A DNA stretch of 64,000 nucleotides, taken from an archaeon. GTDB lineage: Archaea > Iainarchaeota > Iainarchaeia > Iainarchaeales > JAAZKV01. A model generated the notes under the pieces. It did no database searches. It had not been told where the DNA came from and saw nothing but the letters and a program-made list of their open reading frames with translations. Shown here one piece after another: positions 16,998 to 59,758 of the stretch (position 1 is the stretch's first letter; each line of letters starts with the position of its first letter). A program made the translations under genes and the position numbers. The stretch is taken from the NCBI GenBank assembly GCA_041650735.1, contig JBAZKP010000001.1, positions 310,754 to 374,753 of the forward strand. The letters run 5' to 3'.

Positions 16998-18682
16998 TTT
17001 TTTCTCACCGTTTTGAGTGCGTTCATCCCAATAATTAATGCTACAATCAGGACTAATAAAGCTATCCATGCAATTAATGGGATAGAAAAAATTTGGTCCT
17101 CAAACATTATTGAAGGGATGCACTGACCCTTGCAACAAATACCTTGGTTTGAATTAAATGAGGAAGAAGTGCAAGTGAATCCTTGTCCGCAAACATTATC
17201 ATAACAATCAAACAGCTTTTCCGCGTTCTCATCATAAGTAGTTTCTCCTAGTTCGCCTTGGTTTCTTTTCTCAGAAGGCAAAGCAAGGTTCAGAGTAATC
17301 AACTGTTGTTGTTTAGTATCCAAATCATCCACTATGAGGAAAAGATTCTCTTTAGGTACAACAAGCATTTTTGAATACAAAACAAAGGTACTGATTTTTT
17401 CTTCAAACAAAGTCTTGTCAGTTGAAAAAAGCTTTACTTGTGCATTAATACTATTTTTCTTTAACGAAAAAGAAAGCACGCTTGTAGCATCATCAAAATT
17501 CCAATTAACCTCAACAGGGGTCGGGAAGGCCTCATCATACGCTGCTTGTATTTCTTCCTGCAAAGTGCCAAAGCACTCGTTTTCAAGCACATTATTTTCT
17601 TTTATAATCTTGATGCAGATGCTTGAGAAAGATTTTGAGTTCAATACTAACTCTTTCTTGATTACCTCTCCAGCTTTAATGAGGGTAATGCTTGAAGAAG
17701 TTTCTTCCACCAAAGAACTTCCATCAAACACCTCAGCTTTTACTAAAATATCTTTTGTTTCAGGGGTATTAATGTAATCAGGGCTCCCTGACAAAATAAT
17801 TGAAACAAAATAATTTTTTGTATCCCAGCCATTGACAAAAACTTTTCTCGCTTTAGCAGTTTCACCTTTAACAATAACCCTGTTCTTGTACACAGACTCT
17901 GTCTCATTCCCATTATACAACTTCATGTTTATTTCGTAAGCGGAAGGAATTTTTGGAGCAATAAGCTCAACATTCACTGTCACGCTTGAATTAGCAGGAA
18001 TACTAGGAACACTAAATTTCTTTTCATCATCTATATTACAAGACACTGAATCCCATTCGCAAACAGAAACCCCTATTTCCATAGAAGATTTTTGTGTATT
18101 AGAATTATTGTCTATTACAATACTCCCTGTTATTTTTTCTTCAGGTGAAACATAAGAACCCTGTTGGCCCGCAACCTCATTAAATTTTGTTTCAATTCTA
18201 TTAATCACTGCTCTTGTTTTTTTTGCTGTGCCTGAAACAGTGAATTGTTTTGAAGAAGGGGAAAGGAAAATACTGCTTACTCCAACAAACCTAGATTTTA
18301 TTACCCATGAATAAACATCAAGCCTATAATTACCACTACTTTGTGCATTTAAAGAAAAAGGGATTGATTTGTTAGAACCAGGCAAAACAAAATCAATAGG
18401 GATTATTTGTTCAAGGAAAACATTGTCGTTTTGTGAAGAATAAGTTCCTTCCGCAAGCTGGAGTACAAGGTTTCCCCCTATTAATGGATAAACCTCTGTG
18501 TTTCGCACAACAATATTTCCTGAAACAGGTTCATTTACAGAAAAAACATTTTTATCAAACTCAATGCTTGCAGTTCCATGCCACATAGCATCATTTGGAC
18601 TAAGCTCTGCTGCACTCACTCCGCAGAACAAAAACATTAACACTAATGCAATACCTAGCAAAAATTTTTTCTCCATAAACAT
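16994..18682 (-). CDS. Secreted Ig-like-domain protein with C-terminal TM anchor
   Basis: Signal peptide, beta-sandwich-like repeats, Cys cluster before C-terminal TM and basic tail. Confidence 0.75.
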   Translation of the reverse strand: MFMEKKFLLGIALVLMFLFCGVSAAELSPNDAMWHGTASIEFDKNVFSVNEPVSGNIVVRNTEVYPLIGGNLVLQLAEGTYSSQNDNVFLEQIIPIDFVLPGSNKSIPFSLNAQSSGNYRLDVYSWVIKSRFVGVSSIFLSPSSKQFTVSGTAKKTRAVINRIETKFNEVAGQQGSYVSPEEKITGSIVIDNNSNTQKSSMEIGVSVCEWDSVSCNIDDEKKFSVPSIPANSSVTVNVELIAPKIPSAYEINMKLYNGNETESVYKNRVIVKGETAKARKVFVNGWDTKNYFVSIILSGSPDYINTPETKDILVKAEVFDGSSLVEETSSSITLIKAGEVIKKELVLNSKSFSSICIKIIKENNVLENECFGTLQEEIQAAYDEAFPTPVEVNWNFDDATSVLSFSLKKNSINAQVKLFSTDKTLFEEKISTFVLYSKMLVVPKENLFLIVDDLDTKQQQLITLNLALPSEKRNQGELGETTYDENAEKLFDCYDNVCGQGFTCTSSSFNSNQGICCKGQCIPSIMFEDQIFSIPLIAWIALLVLIVALIIGMNALKTVRKK

Positions 18683-38493: not shown

Positions 38494-40989
38494 GTGTCCA
38501 AAGGAAAAAAAAATAATAAATCTGTTTTTTTCGAAAATCTTTTAGCCCAAGCAACAATAGAATATCTAATTATAATTGGTGTAATAGTAATTATTTCTTT
38601 AGCAGTTGTTAGTTTAGTTGTTACTCAAACAGATTCAACAGGAAGCATTTCTAGTTCTGGCACCAGATTGAGCAATGCAAGCGAAGAAGTTAGTCTTACT
38701 GAACTTATAATTGATGATACAGAAAATGCTTTGCTTACTATAAAAAATAATTCACGCGCCCGTTTTTATGTAACAGGAATTAATATTGGGGGCACTGTAA
38801 GTAATTATAATGAGTTGATGCGTGTTGGAGAAAAAAAAGTTTTTTCCTTAGATACTAATGGTAGTAGTTGTTCCTGTGCAAATACAACAAGTAATACTAA
38901 ACAATGTGATATTGATGTAAACACATTGTCAGTTTATGGATTAACTCATGTTCATTACTTATCCCTGATAGGTAATTGTACTCAGGAAGCAAGCCCGGTT
39001 GATTTGAATGGGGTTGTCCAGCCTATTGCAGCAGCTTTTTTTTCAACGGATTTTACTTATGACCCTGATTTATCAGAGTTAGTAGAAATTGTTGATGGAA
39101 ACTATGTAATGACTGATTCTAACTCACAACTTGTTTCTGTAATTGATTTGCAATTAGTGGATATAATTGCTAATGATATTTTTAGTTATACTGGAGCAGA
39201 CCAAACATTTACTGTTCCTGCAGGGATAACTTCCATTGATGTAAAACTTTGGGGCGGCGGTGGGGGCGGGGGCGCTATTGGTGGTTGGAGTTATGGGTTT
39301 CCGGGAGGAGCTGGAGGATATGCTGGAGGAACACTAGCGGTAACACCTGACCAAAATATTACTATAATGGTTGGGGCAGGAGGAAATTCAGGAACTGTTC
39401 CAAACTCAAGCCCTAATTATGGTGGAGGAGCCAGAAACTGTAACACAGGGAGTGATTGCAGATACGGAGGACAAGGAGGAGGAAGATCAGAAGTAATTGT
39501 TGGTGAAACTAATTTTATTATTGCTGGTGGTGGGGGCGGGGGTGGATCAAGTAGAGCTTCAACCGGACAATTTGGTGGAGCAGGAGGAGGAAGTTATGCA
39601 AGAGATGGAACCTCATATACTGCTGCTTGTAAAGGACTAGGAGCTACATATTTAGTTCCAGGTGGTGCAACATCAGGATGCGCTAATGCACAAGGAGAAG
39701 CAGGGACACAATACTTCGGAGGAAATCCAGCATCTAATGCTTATGGTGGCTCAGGAGGAGGAGGTTATTTTGGGGGAGGTGGCGGAGGTTACGGAGAACC
39801 CAATGATATGGGTGGGGGCGGTGGAGGAAGCAGTAATGTAATCGGTCCCTCAATTACAACTGTTGGTGATTACACAATACAAACTTTTACTAATAGCGGA
39901 AACTTTATTGTACCCTCAGGGAGCACAAATGTAGAAGTACTAATTGTCGGAGGCGGCGGAAGTGGAGGAGGAAGACATGGTGGTGGTGGAGGTGGAGGTG
40001 GAGTTTTACATTTAACGGATGTACCAGTCTCTACTGGAAGTTACTCAATAGTTGTTGGAGCAGGGGGGCCTGCTGTTGGCGGAACTAGTATTGATGGAGT
40101 TAATGGGGAAGACAGTTCAGCTTTTGGTGAAACCGCGAAAGGCGGAGGAAGAGGAGGATCATATTGCTCAGGAACTGTAGATTTAAATGGAGGAAGTGGA
40201 GGAGGAGCTGGTCACCAAGATTGTGGAAATACTGCAGGAGTAGCAACACAAGGACAACCTGTTTCTCACACAGGAACAGGATACGGAAATAATGGAGGCG
40301 CTAGTCCAACTGGAAGCAATGAAGGTTCAGGAGGAGGAGGAGCAGGAGCAGTTGGAGAAAATTCTATTGGTGATGTATATGGCGGTGCTGGTGGAAATGG
40401 AATTCTAATTAATATTACAGGAGAAGATTATTACTGGGCAGGGGGAGGAGGCGGTGGCGGTTGGACAGAACCAGCAGGCAACGGCGGACTCGGCGGAGGA
40501 GGTGGCGGCGGCGGAGCAAATGGTGGCGCAGCCGGAACAGGGGGAGGAAGTGCACTTAATAGTGGAGCAACAGGTAGCAATACAACTGCATGCAATGGAG
40601 GAGCAGGTGGCGCAAACACGGGGGGTGGAGGAGGAGGATCAGGACAATGGTGTGATTGCGGATGGTATGGATATAGTGGGGCAGGAGGCTCAGGAGTTGT
40701 AATAATAAAATATTTAACTAATTCAATTCCAACTAATAATTATAATGAATCACTAACAGGATGGACTAATTTATCAACAATAGCAGGAAATGGAATTATT
40801 CCTGGAAATTCTTCTGACACTAATAGAGGAACAGCAGGAAATGGTGGAGCAATAGATACAGTAGGTAATTCTGGCAGAGTAGTTATTTCTTACCCAGACC
40901 AAGAAATAGTAACGTATTTAGAAACAGGAACTCCTGATTCAGGAATTGATATAAGCGAAGGATACATAGCACTAGGTGGTAACGAATGA
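38494..40989 (+). CDS. Class III signal (pilin-like) surface protein with two glycine-rich domains
   Basis: AQATIEYLIIIGVIVII N-terminus; two TF...VxxxGGGGxGG...GxVVIxY glycine-rich domains. Confidence 0.75.
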   Translation: MSKGKKNNKSVFFENLLAQATIEYLIIIGVIVIISLAVVSLVVTQTDSTGSISSSGTRLSNASEEVSLTELIIDDTENALLTIKNNSRARFYVTGINIGGTVSNYNELMRVGEKKVFSLDTNGSSCSCANTTSNTKQCDIDVNTLSVYGLTHVHYLSLIGNCTQEASPVDLNGVVQPIAAAFFSTDFTYDPDLSELVEIVDGNYVMTDSNSQLVSVIDLQLVDIIANDIFSYTGADQTFTVPAGITSIDVKLWGGGGGGGAIGGWSYGFPGGAGGYAGGTLAVTPDQNITIMVGAGGNSGTVPNSSPNYGGGARNCNTGSDCRYGGQGGGRSEVIVGETNFIIAGGGGGGGSSRASTGQFGGAGGGSYARDGTSYTAACKGLGATYLVPGGATSGCANAQGEAGTQYFGGNPASNAYGGSGGGGYFGGGGGGYGEPNDMGGGGGGSSNVIGPSITTVGDYTIQTFTNSGNFIVPSGSTNVEVLIVGGGGSGGGRHGGGGGGGGVLHLTDVPVSTGSYSIVVGAGGPAVGGTSIDGVNGEDSSAFGETAKGGGRGGSYCSGTVDLNGGSGGGAGHQDCGNTAGVATQGQPVSHTGTGYGNNGGASPTGSNEGSGGGGAGAVGENSIGDVYGGAGGNGILINITGEDYYWAGGGGGGGWTEPAGNGGLGGGGGGGGANGGAAGTGGGSALNSGATGSNTTACNGGAGGANTGGGGGGSGQWCDCGWYGYSGAGGSGVVIIKYLTNSIPTNNYNESLTGWTNLSTIAGNGIIPGNSSDTNRGTAGNGGAIDTVGNSGRVVISYPDQEIVTYLETGTPDSGIDISEGYIALGGNE

Positions 40990-43900
40990 ATAAAATAAAA
41001 ATTATTTTAATTTTACTTTTTTTATTATCACTTAATACAAGTGTTTTAGCAGTTGCCGAAGGATGTTACACTTCAAGTGGAGGATATAGTTGGCGTTATT
41101 CATCAGGCTCAGAATCATGTGATACAGTATGCGCAGGGTTTGGAGGAATAGATCCAAATAATCCTTATTGTACAATGTATGATCCTGGATGCGAAGCATG
41201 TCTTTACTTTAACCCTGGTGCTTCATGTGTTGATGGAGACATGGGAGAAGGACCAACTTTTAGTGGAAGCTGTAATGCATCCGGATGGTATGCAATGGAT
41301 TGCGCTATATATGAACCTAGTTATATTAGGTTATGCACTTGTGCTACCACTTGCTTCACCCCTTTAGCAGTAATACTAACAACCCCTTATGATAACCAAG
41401 TCTTCAATGACACCACGGGATTAAATCAAACACTTTCATGTGAAGCAGAAGGAACTAATGGGATAGAAACAATTACTCTTCATGTTCGAGATTCATCTTT
41501 AGTTGAAGTTTATAATGAACCAGTTGCAGTATCCGGAACAGAGGTTACCCAAAATTTTAATTATACTTTTCCATCAGCAGCTCCTTATTCATGGGCATGC
41601 GAAGCATGCAACACAGCTGAAGGATGTATTACAACAAGTTACAATGACATAAATTTTGCTCCAGTTGAAACTATGACAAAAACTTTTGCAGACACAACCC
41701 AAAAAGCATGGAATACAAGCAGTGGATCCCAAACACCACTCTCCCCAGGCAATGCTTCTTATGTGGAATATACTTCAGAACAGTACACTGCCGCAACAAC
41801 CGCAGACAGTACTAGAAATGCTTGGCATGGAGCAATAGAAGCTTCAAGTTATGAAAACTTGTTATTCAAATTCACACTTAATCAAAGCATAAAAGCATCT
41901 AACGTAAAAGAACTTTTATTTAACTGGGTTGGGTATGATGAACAATCAATGACTGGCATGTGGCACGCGAATAGTGCAAATAAAAGCTTTAAAATTTTTA
42001 TTTGGAATTTTAATAGTTCAGCTTGGGAAGAATTATACTCAACAACGACATCAAAATATAGTGATCAAAATTATTTATTCCCAATTATTGATGGATCCGA
42101 GCCAAATGTAAGTACTGTAATAACAAATTACATTGGGTCATCAAAAGAAATTTATTTTGCAATCTCAGGGGATTTTTATGGAGGAGCATATGCGGGAAGC
42201 TGTCCTTACTTGTTCCTCTCTGATGGAAATGAGTATAAATTTCACACAGATTTAATGGGGGCACCCCTTGCAAAAGACGCTAATATCTTCAAACCAGAGT
42301 ATTACAATGGAGGAATTTATTCGCTAGGGGATTTTACTCCAGTTAATGGAACCTATAAATTAAAAGTAAGAGAAACAATTGAAGAAGCAGATTATTTTGA
42401 TGAAGCAAAACTAATTTTGGTTGATACCCCAAAAGGATATGAAGTAATGAATAATTGGAGCCTTACCTCTCTATTAAGATATTCTTCCCCAAAAGATTTT
42501 GTAACAATTAAAGATCCTAAAAACCCAATCTCTGCGATTGATAAAAAAGGAAATAATGTGCTTGAAGAGATTACAAAAAATGATGGAATCCCAGTTCCTC
42601 TTTCATCCAAGGATGATAAAACTAGCGTAATAGTTGATTTTGGGAATATTGAAAGACCTGAAAATGCAAAACTCATTCTTACTGAATGGTCTTATTATGT
42701 AAACAGAATTAATGCTGATAAATCCCCTTATTCAATGGGAACAACAATTGAAATGATGAATGACAAAAATGAGTGGGTGGTAAAAAAAATCATTGGAAGA
42801 AACGGAGGATTTAATAGAAGCCTAATTTTTGATGTCTCAGATATTTTGGAAAAAAATAATACTAAAATGAGAATAACCTTATACAATCAACCGACTTATA
42901 TTGGAATCCTTGACCAGGTAATGCTTGATGATTCTGTCCCAGTGGATATTAATGTAACATATGTTGATGCGAGCGTTGCTGATTTAGGTTATGCCGGTGC
43001 AACTAATTACACTTATCCATCACTAACCCAAGGAGGAAGCTCTGATGATGCAAAAAATCCAGTTGACCCCAAATCTCTAATGTATGGAAATTTTACAAAA
43101 TACGGTGATGTAAAACCATTGCTAGAAAAAACAGATGACAAGTTTGTCATAATGGCTTCCGGTGATGAGTTAGCACTTGAATTCAAAGAACCTGAAAAAT
43201 CAATTGGTGCGGAGAGGCATGCTTTCCTTTACGCGGATGTATTTTATAGCATTAAAAGTACGGTAAAAAAATTTTTAACGGACAATATTTATCCTTTGCC
43301 TTTCCATGGAATGAAAACCTATTCTTATCCCGAAGAACAATGGAAATATAGATGGGATTCAAATTACAGAGAATATTTAGATACATGGAATACAAGAACA
43401 ATTGAGAAAACAAAAGGTACTCATACAATGTATGAAAATTCTTCCCAACTCAGCCTCAAGTATATTCCTGAATACGCTTCATCAGGAACTTTTACTTCAA
43501 ACAAAATAAATCTAAAACAAGCAAAAAAATTATCTTTAATTACCTTTACTGCAGAGACCCCAGTAGGAACCACAGTTAAATTCCAAATAAGGTCGGCTGA
43601 TACTAACGAAGGACTTGATACAGCAACATGGTTAGGTCCTGATGGAACAGGAGAAACTTATTACACAACAACTAATCAAGAAATAAGTTCAGTTCATGGA
43701 AATCCAATATGGGCGCAATGGAAAGCTTATTTATCAACAACAGTATCAACTCTCACTCCAAAATTAACTGCTGTAGATTTAGTTGTCAAAAATAAAGTGG
43801 ATGAAACCAGTTGGGCTACTTTTATTACAGGAAACGGAACAAGCACAGTGTGGAGCGCTTTTACTCCTGTTCAATATTTGAACGGAGGAAACATTGATTG

Positions 43901-44099
43901 GTATTACTCCGCTTACAATTCAGTTGAGGAACCTTGTTCACTTTTAAGCGAATGGACTTTATTAGAAATGACAGAAGGCACAGGTCAATTAGGAGGAGTT
44001 ACAAGTAATTATTTATGCCTCAGAGCATTAATGCATCCTGATGAAAATGCAAATAAAAGCCCTGAAATAACAAGCATGAGTATTGGCGTTCAAAGGTAA
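40986..44099 (+). CDS. Large secreted mosaic protein with an ASPIC/UnbV-protein-like C-terminal module inserted
   Basis: Signal peptide, Cys-rich N-terminus; GSCPYLF...EEADYFDEAKL...GDELALEF...WNTR module at 42195-43397; later SGTFTS...WLGPDG...TPKL module; ATGA coupled to upstream gene. Confidence 0.7.
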   Translation: MNKIKIILILLFLLSLNTSVLAVAEGCYTSSGGYSWRYSSGSESCDTVCAGFGGIDPNNPYCTMYDPGCEACLYFNPGASCVDGDMGEGPTFSGSCNASGWYAMDCAIYEPSYIRLCTCATTCFTPLAVILTTPYDNQVFNDTTGLNQTLSCEAEGTNGIETITLHVRDSSLVEVYNEPVAVSGTEVTQNFNYTFPSAAPYSWACEACNTAEGCITTSYNDINFAPVETMTKTFADTTQKAWNTSSGSQTPLSPGNASYVEYTSEQYTAATTADSTRNAWHGAIEASSYENLLFKFTLNQSIKASNVKELLFNWVGYDEQSMTGMWHANSANKSFKIFIWNFNSSAWEELYSTTTSKYSDQNYLFPIIDGSEPNVSTVITNYIGSSKEIYFAISGDFYGGAYAGSCPYLFLSDGNEYKFHTDLMGAPLAKDANIFKPEYYNGGIYSLGDFTPVNGTYKLKVRETIEEADYFDEAKLILVDTPKGYEVMNNWSLTSLLRYSSPKDFVTIKDPKNPISAIDKKGNNVLEEITKNDGIPVPLSSKDDKTSVIVDFGNIERPENAKLILTEWSYYVNRINADKSPYSMGTTIEMMNDKNEWVVKKIIGRNGGFNRSLIFDVSDILEKNNTKMRITLYNQPTYIGILDQVMLDDSVPVDINVTYVDASVADLGYAGATNYTYPSLTQGGSSDDAKNPVDPKSLMYGNFTKYGDVKPLLEKTDDKFVIMASGDELALEFKEPEKSIGAERHAFLYADVFYSIKSTVKKFLTDNIYPLPFHGMKTYSYPEEQWKYRWDSNYREYLDTWNTRTIEKTKGTHTMYENSSQLSLKYIPEYASSGTFTSNKINLKQAKKLSLITFTAETPVGTTVKFQIRSADTNEGLDTATWLGPDGTGETYYTTTNQEISSVHGNPIWAQWKAYLSTTVSTLTPKLTAVDLVVKNKVDETSWATFITGNGTSTVWSAFTPVQYLNGGNIDWYYSAYNSVEEPCSLLSEWTLLEMTEGTGQLGGVTSNYLCLRALMHPDENANKSPEITSMSIGVQR

Positions 44100-44136
44100 T
44101 TCTTTTCCAAAAGAAACAAAACAATGAGGATTATTT

Positions 44137-45240
44137 ATGTATGATACAAATCAAAATAATCAAAACCAAGAAATAGGGGCTGTTGGCGGGGAACAGAGAA
44201 GCAGTGCTCCTCCAGAAGTGATTCAACCTGAAAAACCAATTCAAGAAGAAAAAAAAGAGACAAAGAATAAAATAATTCTAATTTTGGCAATCTTATTAAT
44301 CCTTGTTTTTTTAGTTTGCGCGATAATACTATTTGTTTTCCCATCGTTATTGCCTTTTAATGAAACCCTCAAATCCCAATACTCTTGCGTTGGAGAGACA
44401 TTTGAAAACTCTGTTCTCTGCCCAGATTCAGATAAAAATTTAGTTAGTGATGTTACCACAGTTTTATCTGGTTCCTGCACTAATATAAAAAAATGTGAAT
44501 ATATATGCAAAGAAGGATATGAATATGAAAATTCTGTTTGTGTAAAAAAATACTGTGTTCTTTCAAATAATTTAGATCTCGCCGGATCAATTGTTGCAAT
44601 ATCCTCTTCAGGCAGAGACACAAATTTTGGGGTATCGCCTTTAGGTGCAACAGCCCCATATTTCCTTATTTTTGACAACAATTTGCTTATTGAAACCGCA
44701 ATAAATCCTTACTTAGAAAAAAATCCTGACCAAGTTGTTGCTGAATGGTTAGCTGGGAAAGGGGTAAAAAAAATAGTGGTAAGCGACGCCACCACTTTAT
44801 TTGAATCAAACCTAAACAAAAATAAAATAGCTTGCTTAAAAATGAGCGGCAAAATAAGTGATTTAGTTGGGGCAGGTCAGAATTTATCAGTTTACAGTTA
44901 TGCATCAAACAACTGCAAAAGCGTTGATTCAATTAGCCTTGCAGGGCCAAAGCTTGCTATCACAACTATTCGCCCCGATTTGAATAGCCCAATCTCATCA
45001 AGCCCTAGTTCAATAAAATATTTCTTAATATTTGAAAATGGCAAATTCGTTGAAGCAATAAAAAATGATTTTAATATTTTAAGCAAGAATTTTGAAAGTG
45101 ATATTGCGCAAATGCTTTTCAAAAAAGATGTTAACAGAGTGGTTTTAGGATACAGAAATATTCCACTTGTTATTGAATTAATGCGCCCAAAATTAGAGTG
45201 TGTGGTAGCCACAGGATTGGTCAGCGAAGTTATAAAATAA
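44137..45240 (+). CDS. Membrane-anchored protein with a Cys-rich module and two NifB/NifX-like domains
   Basis: TM at about residues 47-70; C-x-G...C...C...CEYxC module; VAI...APYFLIFD...NPY...WLAGKGVKKIV pattern twice. Confidence 0.65.
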   Translation: MYDTNQNNQNQEIGAVGGEQRSSAPPEVIQPEKPIQEEKKETKNKIILILAILLILVFLVCAIILFVFPSLLPFNETLKSQYSCVGETFENSVLCPDSDKNLVSDVTTVLSGSCTNIKKCEYICKEGYEYENSVCVKKYCVLSNNLDLAGSIVAISSSGRDTNFGVSPLGATAPYFLIFDNNLLIETAINPYLEKNPDQVVAEWLAGKGVKKIVVSDATTLFESNLNKNKIACLKMSGKISDLVGAGQNLSVYSYASNNCKSVDSISLAGPKLAITTIRPDLNSPISSSPSSIKYFLIFENGKFVEAIKNDFNILSKNFESDIAQMLFKKDVNRVVLGYRNIPLVIELMRPKLECVVATGLVSEVIK

Positions 45241-45244
45241 AAAT

Positions 45245-46609
45245 TTGAGAATGATGCTTATGAAAAAGAAAAATACAAAAAAATTAAAAGCTCCTAAAAA
45301 AAGATCTTTGTTAAAAAGGGGCAAATTAAAAAAATCTGTAATAGCTTCGCACTTCTTACTTAAAAAAATAATTTTGCTTAGCTTTATTATTTTAGTAATA
45401 ATAATTGCGATTGGGATATCTGTTCAGCAAAACAAACCAACTATTGGGCAATTTGTTTGTAAGGGCATTGTGCCTAAAAATGCGGTTCTTTGCTCAAATG
45501 ATGACATAGGATTGATAAAAAATACAAGCATAACCCTGGCTCCTTTTTGTACCTATGAAACAAAATGCCAGTATATTTGTGGTCAAGAATATAAAAAATG
45601 GGAAAATAATTGTGTTGACTTAAATGCACCTATTAATTTTTGTGTGGGCGATGTGCCTAAAAATGCGGTTCTTTGCGAGGAGGATAATTCAAATTTAGAA
45701 TGGAGTTCCCTGAATACATTGGTTTCTTCTTGTACTCCTGATAAAAAATGCGAATATGTTTGCGAATCCGGATTTATAAAAGAGGGGGCACGTTGCCTTA
45801 GAGAATATTGCGAACCTGTTGAAGACCTTAATTTTTCTGGTTCAGTAATTGCAATAACTTCTCAGAATGGAGATTTTTCTTCAGGAGTATCTCCATTGGG
45901 GACAAAAACAGCATTTTTTTTAATATTTAATAATAACAAATTTATTGAGGCTGCAAAAAATCCTTATTCTCAAGAAGAAAGTGATGTTGAAAGAAATGTT
46001 GTCCAGTGGCTGGTTGATAAAAATGTGGAAAAAATTGTTCTCGCTGATGCAGATATTGAGTTTGCTTCAAAAATAGGGGCAGCTGGAATAAAATGCTTAA
46101 AAATAACTGGTAAAATAGCAGCTATTATTGGGCAAGAGGAAAATATTGATACAAACAAACCCGTTTCATATAATGGGGGCCAGCTTGTTATTAATGGAAA
46201 AGATTTTTTTAAAGAGGTAATTGAAGAAAGTGTTATCCAACTAAGCAAAGGAGGAACCCAGAGCTCGGAAACTTTTTATTTGAATCAAGGGGACGAAATT
46301 ACTAGCAAGGATTTTAATGGAAAAGGAATAAACCAGGAATCAATTGTTTTTGCACTCTGCCCTTGCAGCAATTTATCTTCAATACAAATAGATATAGGAT
46401 TAAGCGATTCAAATGATTATTCTTACTTGAAATGGAAAACCAGTGAAGAAATAAAATTACAAGCAACAATTATCTGCGATAATAATGTCAGCACATTAAA
46501 AGAAACACTTAGTTCAATCGGAAAAGTAGTTTCAATCGACCCCGCAGGGTTATGCAAACCAAATACTTCGCCGTGCTGTGTGGTAATGCCAAGGAAATCT
46601 ATACAATAA
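45245..46609 (+). CDS. Paralogous membrane-anchored protein with two Cys-rich modules and one NifB/NifX-like domain
   Basis: Basic N-tail, TM, repeated CxGxVPKNAVLC (DNA repeat GTGCCTAAAAATGCGGTTCTTTGC at about 45470 and 45653), IAI...AFFLIFN...NPY...WLVDKNVEKIV. Confidence 0.65.
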   Translation: MRMMLMKKKNTKKLKAPKKRSLLKRGKLKKSVIASHFLLKKIILLSFIILVIIIAIGISVQQNKPTIGQFVCKGIVPKNAVLCSNDDIGLIKNTSITLAPFCTYETKCQYICGQEYKKWENNCVDLNAPINFCVGDVPKNAVLCEEDNSNLEWSSLNTLVSSCTPDKKCEYVCESGFIKEGARCLREYCEPVEDLNFSGSVIAITSQNGDFSSGVSPLGTKTAFFLIFNNNKFIEAAKNPYSQEESDVERNVVQWLVDKNVEKIVLADADIEFASKIGAAGIKCLKITGKIAAIIGQEENIDTNKPVSYNGGQLVINGKDFFKEVIEESVIQLSKGGTQSSETFYLNQGDEITSKDFNGKGINQESIVFALCPCSNLSSIQIDIGLSDSNDYSYLKWKTSEEIKLQATIICDNNVSTLKETLSSIGKVVSIDPAGLCKPNTSPCCVVMPRKSIQ

Positions 46610-48341: not shown

Positions 48342-48462
48342 AAAGAATTTATAATCGGAAAGAATTATTATTAGTATCCTCTTTTTTTCTCAAAAATACA
48401 ACGTTTTTAATCCTTCCCTTGCAGAAACTATTTTAACAAAAAGCGGAGCTTTTGTTAAACAT

Positions 48463-48604
48463 GCCTTGGTCGTCCAGTGGTCTAGGATCTACCCCTGTCA
48501 GAAACTTTTTCAAAGTTTCATCAAAAGCACTACCCTGCTTCGCGGTGTAGAGCAGAAAAGTTTACTGTTCGGGTGGGACCCGGGTTCGAATCCCGGCCAA
48601 GGCG
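48463..48604 (+). tRNA. tRNA-Asp(GTC) with 69-nt intron at 37/38 (intron 48501-48569)
   Basis: Acceptor GCCTTGG/CCAAGGC plus G73; D-stem GTCC/GGAT; anticodon stem TACCC/GGGTG; CT-GTC-A; T-arm CCGGG-TTCGAAT-CCCGG; bulge-helix-bulge with AAACTTTT/AAAAGTTT. Confidence 0.9.
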
Positions 48605-48677
48605 TAATTATACAATTTTTTGGACAAACATAAGCCTGTTTTTTATACTTCTTAAGGACTATTTATTTAGTGAATTT

Positions 48678-51170
48678 ATGCCAAAAATCTCTATTACACT
48701 TTTATTCTTTCTTTTTTTATTTACAGGCCTTGCATTCTCTTCATCCATAAGGACTATGGTTGATGAAGAAATAGGCCTTATGCTTGAGGGAAAAACAATT
48801 GTAATTGACCCGGGGCATGGAGGAGCATTTACCGGCACAGCATATCCTTTAGGAGGAAAAGCTGATTTCATAGAAAGAGATGTTGTTCTAGAAATATCGA
48901 AAAAAATAAAGAGTGAACTGGAATCCAAAGGAGCAAAAGTTTTTTTAACAAGAGAAAGCAACGAAACAAACCCCAAATTTTCTACGAGAAGAAATACTGC
49001 TGATGTGCCAAATTCTATTTTAATAAGTATTCACTTAAATGGAAGCAATAATTCCTCAGCAAAAGGAATTGAGATTATTTATGATAAAAGAGCAGTTAAG
49101 CAGGAAGAAAGCAAGAAACTCGGTGAAGCAATTATAGAGGAATTGAAACCAATTTTTTATGAAGTACGTGGAAAAGGATTAAAAGATGTAAAAGAAGTAG
49201 GAAAAGAAGAGCTAAGCGTGCTTTACAGTCCACAAAGCAAAAAAAATCCTCTCAGACCCTCTATTCTCATAGAAGCAGGTTTTTTGACCAACCCGAGTGA
49301 CAGAATTTTTTTGTCAAATGATTTGGGGAGAGAAAAAATAGCGAAAGCGATTTCGGAAGGAATACAAGAATATTTTTCTGCAAAAAGCAATATGACAAAG
49401 GAAAGCATTGCTGCAAAAAGCAGTAAAGAAAAAATAGCTGTTTTAGGCAATACTCTTGTGGGGACAAGCAGTGGAACAAAAAACACTGTGCAAAAAGAAT
49501 TTTTTTCTGAACAACAAACAACCGAAAAAAGAATTGTTAAGATAACTGAGGAAGAACAGCAGATAAAATTAGAAAATATTAGCGATACTAACAAAGATTT
49601 GAAACCAGTATATATTGTTTTTCTTCCATTCGGAGAAAAATTTTCTCCTGAAGGTTTGTCAATAGTTGAATTGAAAAAAATATTTTGGGGGGCGGATTAT
49701 TTGTCAAAAAATAGAGTTCCGCTTGGATCAAAAAACCTTGATTTTTGTGGCGCATATTCTGTTGATGGAAATAAAGAACTTGAAATAGATTTTGCAAAAG
49801 CATATGGTAATATGACAAGAGTGTGCTTCAAAGAAAACACGTTTGAGGAAAAAACTTTTTCAATTAAAATTTTGGGTTGGAATAAAAAAGAATTTGCATT
49901 TATTGCTGCACAGGATAATGGGAAAATAATTAATAGATTTGATGAAGGGGAAATAACAAAAATGTTTTATCGAAATGCACTAGAAAAGGCAGAACCTGTA
50001 ATAGCCCAGCGCACCCAATCAGCAACAAAATATTTGGCAAAGCAAAGCAAATTGTGGGGGTGGGATGTTGCTGATGATGAGTGTGAAACAAATTACTGTG
50101 ATTCAGAACAATTCATGGTTTCACAAATAAGAAAAATACAAAAAGTAATAAATAGAGGGCTTTCACAGGAAGAAGAACAGAAACTAGTGAAAACATATGC
50201 TTTCTTGAAAGAAGATGGTTTCTCAGAGGATTTCTTTTCCGATTTTAAGAAAAGCCTTAGCGAAAAAATATTTGAGGCACCTGAGTGGTTTAAAGGAAAA
50301 AACGGATTGGGGGAGTTTTTTAGCGGAAAAATAAAAATTGTTCCTGAAAAAATAACTAATCCTGGATTGTACCAAGTAATAAGTTATTTTGAGTCAGCTA
50401 ATCAACCGGATTTAGATGCTTCGTCTCCAGAAGGAAAGCTTCTTTCGGAAACACTCAAAGAACAAATGTTTTTCGACGGAAAGCCAAACGGAACTATAAT
50501 AATTGAGTTGAAAAAAATAAAAGATGCGGAAAGCGTTGCCCCTTGGCTGAGGATACCTGTTGACGGTTCACTTGGGCTTGATGGGCACAGGAATGGCTAC
50601 GGCTCACTAGTTGCTGATGGTCCTGCAATTGTATGGGAAGTAAAATCAAACGGAGAAAAAATAGTTATTCCACTTGCATTAGCAGGAAGCAATCCTGTAC
50701 AATGGATTCATTCAAAAGAAACTTATTCCTCAAAAGGCGGCGGGTTATCAATAAAACCAACAGGGTCATACTCAATAATTCTTGATAAGAATTCGTTTGA
50801 GAGCGTGGGAGAGGCAATTGAATCACAAGGAGAAATGATTCTTGCTGATGAAAATAATGAAGAAGCAAATTTTTTATTTTCAAACGAAGAATTGGGGGAA
50901 ATTTATCTTGATGAATCAGAACAAACAGAGACAACTGAAAATCAGGAAGAACAAAACTCTGTTACCCAAAATGTTTTAAACAATGAAAATTCAGAACAAC
51001 AAGTAAATTCGCAAACAGGCTCTGCAGAACAAAAATTCATTTTCCCTTTCAAAACCGAGTTCTTGATTGTAATTATAGTATTTGTTTTACTTTCTGTTGC
51101 TTTTCTTTTATCTGCAAAAAAATGGAATAAGGAAAACCCTAAAAGAAGAAGAAACAAAGAAGAATATTGA
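48678..51170 (+). CDS. Surface-anchored N-acetylmuramoyl-L-alanine amidase (Amidase_3) fused to a lineage-type surface module
   Basis: Signal peptide from ATG 48678; IDPGHGG, ERDV, SIHLN and LIEAGFLTN (three Zn ligands plus catalytic Glu); C-terminal TM and basic tail. Confidence 0.85.
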   Translation: MPKISITLLFFLFLFTGLAFSSSIRTMVDEEIGLMLEGKTIVIDPGHGGAFTGTAYPLGGKADFIERDVVLEISKKIKSELESKGAKVFLTRESNETNPKFSTRRNTADVPNSILISIHLNGSNNSSAKGIEIIYDKRAVKQEESKKLGEAIIEELKPIFYEVRGKGLKDVKEVGKEELSVLYSPQSKKNPLRPSILIEAGFLTNPSDRIFLSNDLGREKIAKAISEGIQEYFSAKSNMTKESIAAKSSKEKIAVLGNTLVGTSSGTKNTVQKEFFSEQQTTEKRIVKITEEEQQIKLENISDTNKDLKPVYIVFLPFGEKFSPEGLSIVELKKIFWGADYLSKNRVPLGSKNLDFCGAYSVDGNKELEIDFAKAYGNMTRVCFKENTFEEKTFSIKILGWNKKEFAFIAAQDNGKIINRFDEGEITKMFYRNALEKAEPVIAQRTQSATKYLAKQSKLWGWDVADDECETNYCDSEQFMVSQIRKIQKVINRGLSQEEEQKLVKTYAFLKEDGFSEDFFSDFKKSLSEKIFEAPEWFKGKNGLGEFFSGKIKIVPEKITNPGLYQVISYFESANQPDLDASSPEGKLLSETLKEQMFFDGKPNGTIIIELKKIKDAESVAPWLRIPVDGSLGLDGHRNGYGSLVADGPAIVWEVKSNGEKIVIPLALAGSNPVQWIHSKETYSSKGGGLSIKPTGSYSIILDKNSFESVGEAIESQGEMILADENNEEANFLFSNEELGEIYLDESEQTETTENQEEQNSVTQNVLNNENSEQQVNSQTGSAEQKFIFPFKTEFLIVIIVFVLLSVAFLLSAKKWNKENPKRRRNKEEY

Positions 51171-51224: not shown

Positions 51225-53618
51225 ATGAAAAAACCTGAACTGATTTTGCCAGCCGGCACATTGGATATGCTAAAGGCGGCGGTGCTTAATGGGGCTGATG
51301 CTGTTTATTTTGGGGCAAAAAAATTTAATGCAAGAATTCCTGCAAAAAATTTTGAGGAAGAAGAAATAAAAAAAGGAATTGATTTTTGCCATTTTTATGG
51401 AAAAAAAGCTTATTTAACAATAAATATTTTGCTGAAAGATTCTGAAATAAAAGAAGCAATTGAACTGGCAAAAAAAGCTTACTGTTTAGGAATTGATGCA
51501 ATAATAGTCCAGGATTTGGGATTCATTAGGGCATTAAGAGAATTACTTCCTGAATTGGAAATACATGCTTCTACACAAACAACATGCCACAATGTACAGG
51601 GGGCAGAGCTGCTCGCAGAATTAGGGGTTAAAAAAATTGTGCTGGCAAGAGAACTAACCATTAATGAAATCAAAGAAATAAAACAAGCAATGATTAAACA
51701 CAATGTGGAGATAGAATGCTTTATTCATGGCGCACTATGCTTTTCTTATTCAGGGCAATGCTTGTTTAGTTCATTCGCCTTCAATAAATCGGGGAATAGA
51801 GGGCAATGCTTACAACCATGCAGATTAGAATATGATTTATATGAAAAAGAAAAAATGACAAAACTTTTTGGGCAAAAAAAGAAATTTGTGTTATCAATGA
51901 AAGATTTGAATACATTGCATGTAATCAAAGAGCTTACTGAAGCAGGAATAGATTCATTTAAGGTAGAAGGAAGATTGAAAGGAATAAGCTATGTTGCGGC
52001 TGTAACACAAGCATACAGAAAAGCAATTGATGATTGCTTTGTAGGAAATGAAAAAAAACTTACTCGTGGCGATGAAAACTTTATGAAAATCGCTTTCTCC
52101 AGAGAACCAACAAAAGGATATGCATTTGAAGAAAAAGAAATGACTTATATTGAAAGCCCTGCCCATAAAGGAATTCTTGTTGCAAAAGTAATAGGATTCA
52201 ACCAAGGAACGCTGAAACTCGAATTATTCGAACCATTGCAGCAATGGGATAGGATAGCAATTGTAAACAAAGAACGTCCTGAAGAATTTGAAATAAAAAA
52301 AATGTTTATAGGGTCAAAAGAAACCCAAAGCGCATTTCCTGGCCAATTCGTTTTCATCCAAACTGGGGAAAGACCTTTTGTTGAAATGGGTGCACAGCTA
52401 TATATGGTCTCAAGCAGAGCACTCGCCAACATTGCTTTTGCCTCATTGAAAAGAAATTCCCGGGTAAATTATGATTTACGTGTTTTTGTGGTTGAGGGGC
52501 AGGAATTAAATGCTGTTGCTGAATTTGTAAACAAAAAAGTAAGGATTGGTTCAGGATTTATTTTAAGCAAATCAAAAACAACCGAAACAACAAGCGACCT
52601 TATAAAAGAAAAAGTTTTTAAGTCCTCAGAGTTTTTTGCGCCAGGAGATTTTTCCTGCGAAATAAAAGGAAAACCATTTGTGCCTTTAAGCATTCTAAAA
52701 GATTTCAAAGCAATAATTGCACAAAAAATGGAGGAAAATCTTTTTGAGGAAAACAGGAAAAAAATTGATGAACCCAGTTTTCTTAACAAGTTTAATGCGT
52801 TGCTAAAAATTGAAAATAAAATTTCTCCTGCAAGCGAAAATATTTCTTTTGTTGTTTTTGTTGAAAATGATACTTCTCCAAAAATGATTTCTGAAATAAA
52901 CAAGCACAAAGAAATTTCCGCGATTGTTCAATACTTTTTAGGGCAAAAGGAAAATGTTTTTATGAAAAAGGAATTTGGTGAAAAAGAATTTTTTGTAAAA
53001 TCGCCAAATATCCAGACAACAAACCAATTGAACGCATTTAATTTAATTACAAAAAATGAGAATATTGTCTGCTCTAACGTAGGTGCACTATGGATTGCTG
53101 TTCAGAGAAAAAAATCCAGTAAAGAATTCAAATTCTGGGTTGACAGGGAATTAAATACATTTAATTCTTTAACAGAAAAATTAATGCTTGAAATGGGTGC
53201 TGAAAAAATCATTCCTTCAATTGAATGCTCTTTCGTGCAGGTAAGCGAAATGAATTTTAGTGGAAAACTAGTCCCTCTGGTTTTCTTTTACCCTCTATTG
53301 ATGACATCAAAAGCATACTCAAAAAATCCTGCTGTAAAAACAGGAGATTATTTGCTTGTGGACAGAAAAAAATTTGAGTACAAAGTAAAATTAGATGAAA
53401 ACAAGTTGCTCCGAATATACAATCCTGTTCCTGTTGATATGCTATTTGAGTTAGAAAAATTTTCTGGATTTGGATTAGCGGGAATTGATTTGATTTCAAT
53501 GAACGAAAAAGAATCCTTGCATGCAATCAAATTTGCGATGGAAAAACTTTTGGGAAAAAATCCTGCAAAAAAATTTGCCTCATTCACAAGAGGGCATTAC
53601 AAAAAAGAACTGGAATAA
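51225..53618 (+). CDS. U32 family protein (RlhA/TrhP-like RNA hydroxylation), long form
   Basis: GADAVYFG, HASTQ, LARE, FIHGALCFSYSGQC...NRGQCLQPCR, SFKVEGR motifs. Confidence 0.85.
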   Translation: MKKPELILPAGTLDMLKAAVLNGADAVYFGAKKFNARIPAKNFEEEEIKKGIDFCHFYGKKAYLTINILLKDSEIKEAIELAKKAYCLGIDAIIVQDLGFIRALRELLPELEIHASTQTTCHNVQGAELLAELGVKKIVLARELTINEIKEIKQAMIKHNVEIECFIHGALCFSYSGQCLFSSFAFNKSGNRGQCLQPCRLEYDLYEKEKMTKLFGQKKKFVLSMKDLNTLHVIKELTEAGIDSFKVEGRLKGISYVAAVTQAYRKAIDDCFVGNEKKLTRGDENFMKIAFSREPTKGYAFEEKEMTYIESPAHKGILVAKVIGFNQGTLKLELFEPLQQWDRIAIVNKERPEEFEIKKMFIGSKETQSAFPGQFVFIQTGERPFVEMGAQLYMVSSRALANIAFASLKRNSRVNYDLRVFVVEGQELNAVAEFVNKKVRIGSGFILSKSKTTETTSDLIKEKVFKSSEFFAPGDFSCEIKGKPFVPLSILKDFKAIIAQKMEENLFEENRKKIDEPSFLNKFNALLKIENKISPASENISFVVFVENDTSPKMISEINKHKEISAIVQYFLGQKENVFMKKEFGEKEFFVKSPNIQTTNQLNAFNLITKNENIVCSNVGALWIAVQRKKSSKEFKFWVDRELNTFNSLTEKLMLEMGAEKIIPSIECSFVQVSEMNFSGKLVPLVFFYPLLMTSKAYSKNPAVKTGDYLLVDRKKFEYKVKLDENKLLRIYNPVPVDMLFELEKFSGFGLAGIDLISMNEKESLHAIKFAMEKLLGKNPAKKFASFTRGHYKKELE

Positions 53619-57064: not shown

Positions 57065-59758
57065 ATGCAAAAAAGAATTCTAGTACTATTTTTTGTTCTG
57101 ATACTTGCATTAACAGCTTTTGCTACTGATGGTAATAACACTGATTCAAATAGCATTGCTTGTGTTGCCGTGTATGACCCGGTTTGTGGTTCTGATGGAA
57201 TAACTTATTCAAATTCTTGTTACGCGGGATTAGCAGGAGTAAGTATTGCTTATGATGGAGAATGTACTGTTGACTCAAATGCTACTTGTACAAGGGAAGG
57301 AGAAAGTTATCCAGTTGTTCCTGGGTATAAGTGCTGCGAAGGATTAACAGGAATACAACCAACCGCAACGCTAGTTGGTGATGAATGTAAAATGATGGTT
57401 GGTTCAACCCTTTGCTCTAATTGTGGAAATGGAACATGTGAAAAATGGGAAAACAAATGTAATTGCCCAAGCGATTGTTCAAGTACGATTTGTGCAAATA
57501 CGGGCGAGGCTGTTTATATTACTGAAGATTTTGGCCCCACTTATTGTTGTAGTAAAAACGATGGAGTAAAGCCAGTTGTATTTTATAGTGAAGGTGCGTG
57601 TATAGCACCAACTAATGGGCAGAAAGGAACTTGTGTTGCTATTTGGTGGAAAACTTGTGGGGATGGATACTGTGATTCAGCAACAGAAGATAAATGCAAT
57701 TGTGAAAAGGATTGTGATAAAACTCAAAAAGAAAGAGCGGCACTTGGAGAAAAATTTGATCTCTCACAAGGAAAAAACATTATTATTTTTGATAGCAAAG
57801 AAGGCACCATTTCAAGTACTTCAGATTTATTCACAGTGCAACTTGATTCAGTAATGGAATTAAAGACGCAAGTTGAAGCATGTGCCCCTGGTGCCATGTG
57901 TCCTATTCCTGTTGATTCAATAGCAGAACTAACAGTTACAGGAATATGCAATGCTCCTGAAGGGGCTGTGTGTGGAGTTGCTGCAATGAGGGTGAAAGTG
58001 GCAATTAGGGACAAAGCGGAAATTTTTTCTGATTATGAAATAAGTTTTTTGAACTTTTCAAGCAATGTAGCAACATTTGTGGTTAAGAAAAAAATACCTG
58101 AAATTTGTCCAAGCCTTTATGACCCTGTGTGCGGTGGAAAAGAAATATGTGTTAAGTGTGCTTCAATATTAACAAGTGACTCTAATACAAGTAGTAATGA
58201 TAAGTGCCTTAATGGCGGAGGATGTTTTGTAGAGCAAAAAACTTATGCAAACAAATGCATAATGGAATTAGAGGGAGCAAAATTCCTTTACGCTGGAGAA
58301 TGTGGCGCAGCAAAAACAAATTACAGAAATGCTTATTGGCAATGCACTAATGGAAAAGAATACAAAGAAGGAGGAGAAAGTTCATGCAAACCAGAAAGCC
58401 TTTGGAGACAATATGCTGATGAATCCTGTAAAAAAGCATGTAATGAGGATTCAAATTCAACAAATGTTTCAGGTTATGAAAAATGCGGAATAAAATCATT
58501 TAGTGTTTCAAACGAATGTTCTGATAATGAATTAACTTGCGGGGGAATACAAGGAAAAATGTGCCCTGAAGGATATTATTGTGTTTACAAAGGAAATTAT
58601 CCTGATGCTGATGGAAAATGCGTAAAAAAACCTTTAGGGGATTTCTATAAAGGAGCTTATTGGAAATGCAGTAATGGGAAAGAATACAAGGAAACTTCAG
58701 AAAAGTGTTTGTCGAGTGCGGAATGGAAAAATATTGCGAGAAAAAAATGCGGAGCAATGAGTGCTAACTGCGCAACAAGCACAACCCCCACAGTTGTTTC
58801 AGTTCCACCAACAGAATCTGTTGCACAGGACCCTATACAAAGTCAAGCAGCTCCTTCAAGTCCAATCACTGCTTTTATTCTTGCAATTGTCAACCCAATT
58901 ACACAAGCTTCAGTTGTAAACCAAACAACAACTTCTGGGGGAGCAGGCGGAAATTCTGCAAACACAATAAATTCCGCAAACTCAATAAATGCAATTAATG
59001 CAAATACACAAACAGAAACTAATTGCGGTGGGGAAGTGTTTGTTTCAGAATTTCAGCTTTTTGATGAATGCACTCCAAAGGCATGCACGCATTATATTGA
59101 TATGAATGGTTGTCAGGTAAAAAAATGTGAAGGTGAAACAGAACAAAGCTATTGTCCTGGTGAATGCAGAAACCAGAATATTGATGAAATAAAAAACATA
59201 AAAGAAGAGTGTGCTAAAAACAATGGACAAGTAATCGCAAGTATTAATGAAAAAGGTTGTTCATTATATGTTTGTACAAAAAATATTGATGCAAATACGT
59301 GTATGAAAAAAGCAAGCGTGCCTGAAGAAAAATACCTTTCCTGCAAAGAAAAAGGGGGAGAATTAATTGTTAAAGAGCTTGGAAATGGCTGCGTATCTTT
59401 CATTGATTGCATAGGATCAACAAGTGATACGAACACAGTAAAAGTTCCTGAACCAACTGATTTACTTGAACTTGCATTAAAACTTGAAAACTTAAACATA
59501 GAATTAGGAAAATTAAAGGTAAAACTTACAGCAATACAAAACTATTACATTGATACAAATAATACAACTGATGCAAACAGAATAGGGAATGCAATAACCG
59601 TGCTGGTTTCAATAGAAACAAAAATTGTTGAATTAAGGGCAGAAATAAAAGAAAAAATAAATAATTTTACTGAAGAAGATGCAAGTGCTTTGAGAGAAGG
59701 AATAAGAGAAATAAAAGAAACAAAAATAAAAGAACTAGTAATAGCGTTGCTTGGATAA
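57065..59758 (+). CDS. Secreted Cys-rich protein with two Kazal-type domains and C-terminal coiled coil
   Basis: Signal peptide; CVAVYDPVCGSDGITYSNSC...YDGEC; second Kazal with insert; repeated Y(R/K)xAYWxCxNGKEYKE; coiled-coil tail. Confidence 0.8.
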   Translation: MQKRILVLFFVLILALTAFATDGNNTDSNSIACVAVYDPVCGSDGITYSNSCYAGLAGVSIAYDGECTVDSNATCTREGESYPVVPGYKCCEGLTGIQPTATLVGDECKMMVGSTLCSNCGNGTCEKWENKCNCPSDCSSTICANTGEAVYITEDFGPTYCCSKNDGVKPVVFYSEGACIAPTNGQKGTCVAIWWKTCGDGYCDSATEDKCNCEKDCDKTQKERAALGEKFDLSQGKNIIIFDSKEGTISSTSDLFTVQLDSVMELKTQVEACAPGAMCPIPVDSIAELTVTGICNAPEGAVCGVAAMRVKVAIRDKAEIFSDYEISFLNFSSNVATFVVKKKIPEICPSLYDPVCGGKEICVKCASILTSDSNTSSNDKCLNGGGCFVEQKTYANKCIMELEGAKFLYAGECGAAKTNYRNAYWQCTNGKEYKEGGESSCKPESLWRQYADESCKKACNEDSNSTNVSGYEKCGIKSFSVSNECSDNELTCGGIQGKMCPEGYYCVYKGNYPDADGKCVKKPLGDFYKGAYWKCSNGKEYKETSEKCLSSAEWKNIARKKCGAMSANCATSTTPTVVSVPPTESVAQDPIQSQAAPSSPITAFILAIVNPITQASVVNQTTTSGGAGGNSANTINSANSINAINANTQTETNCGGEVFVSEFQLFDECTPKACTHYIDMNGCQVKKCEGETEQSYCPGECRNQNIDEIKNIKEECAKNNGQVIASINEKGCSLYVCTKNIDANTCMKKASVPEEKYLSCKEKGGELIVKELGNGCVSFIDCIGSTSDTNTVKVPEPTDLLELALKLENLNIELGKLKVKLTAIQNYYIDTNNTTDANRIGNAITVLVSIETKIVELRAEIKEKINNFTEEDASALREGIREIKETKIKELVIALLG

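Follow-up and report, generated by a model that had tools for sequence, protein, structure and literature searches.

A putative membrane-tethered murein amidase of bacterial type on a lineage-specific surface scaffold in the archaeal order Iainarchaeales

Why should an archaeon that makes neither murein nor pseudomurein carry an intact gene for an enzyme of the bacterial cell wall? The question is raised by a stretch of 64,000 nucleotides (hereafter the window) of contig JBAZKP010000001.1 (assembly GCA_041650735.1, positions 310,754 to 374,753 of the forward strand), which is the final 64 kb of a 375-kb contig in the 984-kb genome (88% complete, 0.7% contamination) of a member of the order Iainarchaeales, phylum Iainarchaeota. 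The open reading frame (ORF) at 48678-51170 on the + strand of the window has an 830-residue product whose N-terminal part, the head, is an amidase domain. The best-supported reading is that of a membrane-tethered murein amidase which would act on bacterial peptidoglycan outside the archaeal cell, that is, a probable zinc-dependent N-acetylmuramoyl-L-alanine amidase of CwlD/LytH-like ancestry that this Iainarchaeota lineage would have fused to its own surface scaffold. While the gene, its architecture and its place in the genome are directly visible, the substrate, the contact dependence and the purpose of the amidase are what we infer.

The ORF has an alternative GTG start at 48573, and a frame beginning there would overlap and run through the intron-bearing tRNA-Asp gene, so the ATG at 48678 is the likely start, as was assumed in the first-pass annotation, an earlier reading made from the letters of the window. 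Pfam PF01520, Amidase_3, is the family of N-acetylmuramoyl-L-alanine amidases (EC 3.5.1.28) and matches residues 41-230 with E=3.5e-35 and 122 bits against a cut-off of 27, the alignment taking in profile positions 1-173 of 174 (125 bits in a whole-genome profile scan). The motifs GHGG46, ERD66, SIH117 and IEAGF198 are all in place, with H47, E66 and H119 as zinc ligands and E199 as the catalytic glutamate. Alignments by phmmer put them in the columns where CwlD (7RAG), LytH (7TJ4) and 4RN7, amidases of known structure, have their metal ligands and catalytic residue, E199 of IEAGF being aligned to IECGF, LELGY and IECGF. The zinc ligands of LytH are H128, E145 and H193 (PMC9245657). An orthologue of about 42-45% identity, P0225, also keeps the catalytic motifs (DPGHGS, EKD, SIHLNG and VEIGF). 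In addition, the AlphaFold model of the head, with a predicted local distance difference test (pLDDT) score of 80-97, has the six-stranded alpha/beta fold of the amidases, and Foldseek gives TM-scores on the target of 0.79-0.85 to 7RAG, 7TJ4, 5EMI, 4RN7 and 1JWQ. Ranks 1-34 of the PDB matches are peptidoglycan amidases without exception, and other amidohydrolases (PghP and aspartoacylase, ranks 35-43) come only at E values of 1e-3 or worse. The Amidase_3 domain with all zinc ligands and the catalytic Glu that had been read by eye is thus borne out by score, motif columns and fold.

The head belongs to the family and to none of its named groups. The NCBIfam CwlD equivalog TIGR02883 scores 93.8 bits where 221.55 are needed, and the host is no spore former; the AmiA, AmiB and AmiC models give 71, 43 and 37 bits against 400, 532 and 700, and the match to Rv3717 is sub-threshold too. 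Consequently, the protein is to be regarded as an Amidase_3 member outside every named subfamily. Pfam finds no AMIN domain in the 830-residue protein, and the AmiA structure 8C2O aligns to it in two pieces which flank an insert without counterpart here, consistent with an amidase lacking the blocking helix of the division amidases. Judged from its sequence, the head is of the short CwlD/LytH/CwlV type.

The protein is made up of the following parts, given with their coordinates in the window:

48678..48746, + strand: predicted export signal, residues 1-23 (MPK, a 17-residue hydrophobic core, AFSSS), from hydropathy
48798..49367, + strand: Amidase_3 catalytic domain, residues 41-230, from Pfam, alignment, AlphaFold and Foldseek
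49383..49544, + strand: low-complexity linker rich in Ser, Thr, Lys and Glu, residues ~236-289, predicted helical and then disordered
49545..50027, + strand: beta-rich domain A, residues ~290-450
50028..50747, + strand: lineage-wide surface-protein module, residues ~451-690, from sequence motifs
50748..51053, + strand: last scaffold strands, then an acidic disordered stalk rich in Asn, Gln, Ser and Thr, residues ~691-792
51054..51170, + strand: predicted transmembrane helix, residues 793-815, from hydropathy, with the basic cytoplasmic tail 816-830 (KKWNKENPKRRRNKEEY) and the stop codon

By hydropathy the topology of the protein is extracytoplasmic, with a hydrophobic stretch at residues 4-24 near the N-terminus and one C-terminal helix at residues 793-815, followed by the basic tail (positive-inside). 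The C-terminal transmembrane anchor of the first-pass annotation is accordingly present in hydropathy, and the AlphaFold model has it as a helix at residues 793-819. The N-terminal segment is either a predicted Sec signal peptide or a signal anchor, its cleavage being presumed. The linker and the stalk fall below a pLDDT of 50 at residues 258-286 and 721-790, respectively. In the arrangement proposed here the protein would be exported through Sec, the C-terminal helix would hold it in the archaeal membrane with the basic tail inside the cell, and the head would be carried at the far N-terminal end of some 550 residues of linker, scaffold and acidic stalk. Two other sorting signals were considered and rejected by eye: a PGF-CTERM/archaeosortase signal, since there is no PGF motif ahead of the C-terminal helix, and a class III (pilin) signal, since the N-terminus is without a short charged leader and a Gly/Ala cleavage site.

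The amidase gene is native to the archaeal genome and under purifying selection. On its upstream side the contig has genes for both PolD subunits (DP1 and DP2), for SecD/F, for a form III-like RuBisCO and for a helicase of the Hel308 type that includes the archaeal domain 4. On the downstream side of the amidase come a U32 gene, the genes for AMMECR1 and Memo, and one for a radical SAM enzyme. With proteins of Candidatus Forterrea and Candidatus Iainarchaeum the large subunit of PolD shares 72-85% identity. The G + C content at third codon positions (GC3) of the head is 0.25, and GC3 and codon use are the same as in PolD, RuBisCO and U32. Two orthologues are known, P0002 on a 135-kb JGI contig (90% identical) and P0225 on an ENA contig, and the gene order RuBisCO...MBL-tRNA-Asp-amidase-U32...AMMECR1-Memo is common to these two contigs and the window. 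Between P0001, the protein of the window, and P0002 the ratio of nonsynonymous to synonymous substitution rates (dN/dS) is 0.14 in the head and 0.10-0.13 in the scaffold, and it is relaxed to 0.43 in the stalk. An assembly chimera or bacterial contamination, which the bacterial type of the amidase domain might bring to mind, is next to impossible on this evidence: archaeal genes flank the gene on both sides within the 375-kb contig, its GC3 and codon use are native, the C-terminal two-thirds of its product are a module specific to the archaeal order Iainarchaeales, and an archaeal TATA-like TTTATA stands about 32 nt 5' of the ATG. The same neighbours in the independent JGI and ENA assemblies answer the worry about a chimera, which the earlier reading had put up for checking. 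A decaying gene can likewise be dismissed.

It is next asked whose wall the enzyme could cut. The host genome (88% complete, as above) has no Mur_ligase_M and no transpeptidase of the penicillin-binding protein (PBP) type, so a murein wall of its own is unlikely, and the view of the first-pass annotation that the amidase does not serve such a wall agrees with this. Mur-ligase-type hits never exceed one per genome in the relatives that bear an amidase, and the same holds for M. jannaschii and H. volcanii, two control archaea without murein. Because the archaeon makes neither murein nor pseudomurein, the head most likely acts on bacterial peptidoglycan. A survey of 196 species genomes of the order in 73 genera (215 in the phylum) gave Amidase_3 in eight genomes of seven genera, and in several of these the domain stands beside other wall-cutting domains: with an RlpA-like barrel, PKD and glucosaminidase in a closed 1.24-Mb genome (G084, L011, C1:655707-658754), with NlpC/P60 and glucosaminidase inside a 3381-residue reading frame (G153, L012, C26), with CBM4_9, M23, GH3 and an RlpA-like domain (G109, L013, C4), and with an SLT-like segment and an RlpA-like domain (G099, L016, C54). 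The RlpA-like and SLT-like labels in these fusions were read by eye and have no Pfam match. Such fusions of Amidase_3 to murein-cutting domains point to bacterial murein as the substrate. Moreover, SLT lytic-transglycosylase domains occur in 60 of the 196 genomes (30 of the 73 genera) and glucosaminidase in 24, so murein-cutting capacity is common in the order. As an observation apart, several multi-enzyme hydrolases of the Iainarchaeales have a Cys-rich RlpA/DPBB-like domain which is invisible to Pfam.

The enzyme head is grafted onto an undescribed, lineage-specific surface scaffold of about 430 residues. The whole C-terminal part of the protein, and beta-rich domain A within it, are common only to P0002, P0225, P0226 and one protein of genome G069. 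The core module of about 240 residues (~451-690), defined by the motifs WxW..C..YCD..QF, DGFSxDF and PxDGxxG..RxGYG, all of which the amidase protein has, is far more widespread: it is found in 62 representative proteins, mostly of 2000-2900 residues, in addition to the amidase protein with its two relatives of full length, and in 140 of the 196 Iainarchaeales genomes, with five copies in the host genome. A divergent copy is present in the window itself, at residues 487-679 of a 927-residue protein encoded at 14286-17069 on the - strand (hhalign probability 96.4%, E=1e-9). The model of residues 290-720 made from a 36-sequence alignment has a mean pLDDT of 81 and a predicted TM-score (pTM) of 0.63, and Foldseek gave it no match in PDB or BFVD (best E 0.55 and 1.0), nor did Pfam at E values up to 1; the scaffold is for this reason called undescribed and lineage-specific. 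P0226 is an 849-residue protein with the same scaffold and C-terminal anchor under a different head of 330 residues without Pfam match, and its gene (L022, 8001-10550) lies at an unrelated archaeal locus beside the LonB and PheRS genes. This other head on the same scaffold suggests head swapping. It could be supposed, as a speculative and rather unlikely extension, that the scaffold and C-terminal anchor are a general Iainarchaeales display platform with varied heads, namely the amidase (in the host lineage and P0225), the unassigned head of P0226 and the long arrays of the giants of 2000-2900 residues, in which the amidase would be an exchangeable tool of a contact apparatus directed against bacteria.

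As for the origin of the head, the nearest heads outside the clade are those of proteins of about 220 residues, 36-40% identical. The closest environmental homologue, P0101, is encoded after rplM-rpsI, beside a SleB-like gene and a LysM amidase, an arrangement around rplM-rpsI that we take to be the cwlD position of the Firmicutes. In a tree of 98 amidase domains P0001, P0002 and P0225 form a clade with a support of 99, with a weak tie (94) to the amidases of G099; the base of the tree is without resolution, and neither a donor nor a single origin of the Iainarchaeales copies was recovered. A first scan of genome contigs with the amidase head for a bacterial donor gave no match. On its sequence relationships, the head is probably of bacterial, CwlD-like ancestry, probably from the Firmicutes, and no finer donor is proposed.

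The amidase gene is a presence/absence polymorphism at a fixed locus, the slot between two genes:

48462..48605, + strand: tRNA-Asp(GTC) with a 69-nt intron, 5' edge of the slot, from aragorn -i and the cloverleaf fold
51225..53618, + strand: U32-family gene, 3' edge of the slot

Three genomes have the amidase gene at this place, exactly between tRNA-Asp and U32. In three genomes of the same genus (G124, G125 and G126) the block RuBisCO-p119-membrane protein-MBL-tRNA-Asp-U32 is kept, the amidase gene is absent and the distance from tRNA-Asp to U32 is 83-650 bp; in the genus as a whole, most species lack the gene. Between the two lineages keeping the gene, the amidase protein is about 45% identical and its neighbours are 63-86% identical. 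No att-like direct repeats joining the tRNA 3' end and the far side of the amidase gene were found, and no integrase near it. A gene that is patchily present at one fixed locus recalls the gains and losses described for weaponised hydrolases (PMC12352652).

Some further observations concern the slot and its surroundings. The tRNA-Asp intron is at the canonical position, and the gene was missed by default ARAGORN and Rfam; the intron is 80 nt in the 90%-identical strain (L010), and there is none in L020 or in the same-genus loci L083-L085. In the P0225 genome a gene for a 142-residue cupredoxin (L020, 6866-7294) is present between the amidase and U32 genes and is absent from the window. At 38494-46609 (+ strand) four genes for secreted or surface proteins stand between RuBisCO and the 119-residue protein gene, encoding an 831-residue glycine-rich-domain protein, a 1037-residue protein and Cys-rich membrane proteins of 367 and 454 residues. 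Since the gap from RuBisCO to the 119-residue protein gene is only 0.1-1 kb in L010 (the sister strain), L020 and L083-L084, the four-gene block of the window is a strain-specific insertion of about 8 kb. In addition, the gene at 57065-59758 (+ strand) encodes an 897-residue protein whose N-terminal domain is a protease inhibitor of the Kazal type, an unusual feature for an archaeon.

What would such an enzyme do at the surface of an archaeon? In the preferred reading the head would most likely strip stem peptides off the peptidoglycan of any bacterium with which the cell comes into contact, and the bacterial wall would be thinned or opened at the contact, which may allow attachment, access to the bacterial membrane, or killing. 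This contact-dependent thinning of the wall for attachment or attack is given a probability of about 0.45, and a number of points weigh against it. It is known that an amidase alone does not lyse cells, and no second lytic domain was found in the host by tblastn with the multi-domain hydrolases of relatives or by SLT and glucosaminidase profiles, the M23, NlpC/P60, Amidase_2 and CHAP profiles not being scanned. CwlD and LytH, the nearest solved relatives, need a partner protein for activity (PMC9245657), and no partner or activator gene is recognisable adjoining the amidase. The scaffold has no recognisable peptidoglycan-binding domain by Pfam at E<=1 or by a fold search of the confident model, and if the N-terminal segment is uncleaved, the head would be held close to the membrane of the archaeon itself instead of being carried at the end of the stalk. 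Finally, identity to even the closest bacterial sequences is no higher than 36-40%, which leaves room for a shift of substrate. In an alternative that seems unlikely, though deserving of attention, the tethered amidase would free stem peptides near the membrane from murein debris or muropeptides of dead bacteria arriving at the cell surface, as an amino-acid source for an auxotrophic archaeon with a small genome. Such scavenging calls upon the same enzyme evidence (Pfam, motif columns and fold), the tether would keep the products close to the cell, no toxin or pilus gene is coupled to the amidase at the locus, and the sole murein-cutting domain found in the genome, a poor weapon by itself, would be enough for peptide release. 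However, no peptide or muropeptide transporter or catabolic gene adjoins the amidase, absence from most species of the genus would be odd for basic nutrition, and divergence faster than that of the neighbours is more typical of interaction genes.

A change of substrate, by which the head would cleave another amide in place of murein, for example in a glycoconjugate belonging to the envelope of the archaeon itself or to an archaeal host, is quite improbable, more so than scavenging. It would suit a head whose identity to bacterial amidases nowhere exceeds 40% and which has a long stem in the tree, the lack of a wall-binding domain and a scaffold used also by the giant surface proteins of the lineage, and distant fold relatives such as PghP and aspartoacylase cut other amides; yet all close solved structural matches (ranks 1-34) are murein amidases, in relatives of the order the domain is joined to unambiguous murein-cutting domains, and we know of no non-murein substrate for any Pfam Amidase_3 member. 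The domain might also be a murein-binding adhesin for a bacterial partner with little or no catalysis, as a surface-tethered protein without other wall-binding module could suggest, but a pure binder could lose its catalytic residues, and here orthologues only 42% identical retain the catalytic Glu and every zinc ligand, with a dN/dS of 0.14, so that this is very improbable. Still less credit is given to remodelling of a murein-like or pseudomurein wall of the archaeon itself. CwlD and LytH, the nearest characterised relatives, are indeed housekeeping wall-maturation enzymes in the membrane of their producer, but pseudomurein has no N-acetylmuramic acid, the genome has neither Mur_ligase_M nor PBP transpeptidase, and most species of the genus lack the gene although the locus is otherwise conserved. 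Even taken together, binding only, own-wall remodelling and an artefact account for very little of the probability.

The first-pass proposal of a surface enzyme against bacterial walls is therefore supported in part, and indirectly, by the intact site under purifying selection, the lack of genes for an own wall and the murein-cutting fusions in relatives, while the novelty claimed for DPANN archaea was overstated: murein hydrolases and attack on bacteria are already in print (PMC9723730, PMC10936187, PMC12352652). They have been published, with the attack inferred, for Woesearchaeota (PMC9723730) and for metagenome-assembled genomes of DPANN from oxygen-deficient zones (PMC10936187), and the idea of archaeal murein hydrolases directed against bacteria is in print as well (Strock 2025, Vigneron 2022). 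In the survey of Strock et al. 2025 (PLoS Biol) hydrolases are prominent in Nanoarchaeota, Amidase_3 is among the catalytic domains, Halogranum M23 enzymes are among the archaeal hydrolases, and two haloarchaeal enzymes killed bacteria (PMC12352652). The portion of its S2 table available to us includes a LysM+Amidase_3 protein of Woesearchaeales and no Iainarchaeota entry (PMC12352652). A literature search on Iainarchaeota or Diapherotrites with peptidoglycan, and on DPANN with N-acetylmuramoyl-L-alanine amidase, found no murein amidase described in the phylum, nor any account of its capacity for cutting murein. The amidase reported here is a new example, not a new kind; the new parts are the scaffold and the tRNA-Asp/U32 presence-absence slot.

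Compared with the known systems, the protein has features of several. Like the hydrolases of Strock et al. 2025 it has a bacterial-type murein-cutting domain in a murein-free archaeon and a predicted export signal, is patchy among relatives and would act on bacteria, whereas it is predicted to be membrane-tethered and not secreted and stands on an undescribed lineage-specific scaffold. Under the modular definition of that survey it has the catalytic domain and no wall-binding domain was found, and because the screen demands a Pfam wall-binding domain, it leaves out proteins of the present kind. CwlD (C. difficile, 7RAG) and LytH (S. aureus, 7TJ4), which are membrane-anchored short Amidase_3 proteins of the Firmicutes, are the best matches in sequence and structure, with the same metal ligands and catalytic Glu and without the blocking helix of AmiA/B/C; identity is, however, 25-37%, the present amidase has a predicted C-terminal anchor too and 600 extra residues, its host is presumably without a wall and no GerS- or ActH-like partner is visible. 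The GH25 lysozyme of Aciduliprofundum (Metcalf et al. 2014, eLife; reference 30 in PMC12352652) is likewise an antibacterial wall hydrolase that moved from bacteria into an archaeon. It belongs to another enzyme family, and it is reported to be a free enzyme with antibacterial activity. Finally, large extracellular 'murein-like lytic transglycosylase' proteins have been described in Woesearchaeota and Pacearchaeota (the AR20 genome, reference 11 in PMC9723730; also PMC10936187). These are also big surface or secreted DPANN proteins with a murein-cutting domain, read as anti-bacterial; they carry an SLT/GH23 glycan cutter in contrast to the peptide-stripping amidase here, the phylum differs, and the host genome is without SLT.

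If the head is active on murein, the Iainarchaeota would be added to those DPANN lineages that have the means of acting on bacterial walls, and with a different solution from the secreted wall-binding hydrolases, namely a head tethered to its producer on a lineage-specific scaffold. Archaeal murein hydrolases may accordingly be undercounted by screens that insist on a known wall-binding domain. Residues ~25-240 are a small expressible protein with which to ask whether the uncultured Iainarchaeota target bacteria. The scaffold module merits a description of its own, since most genomes of the order have it and no fold relative of it is known, and if the display platform were true, it would mean, together with SLT in about one third of the order, that bacteria rather than archaea are commonly what Iainarchaeota live on or from.

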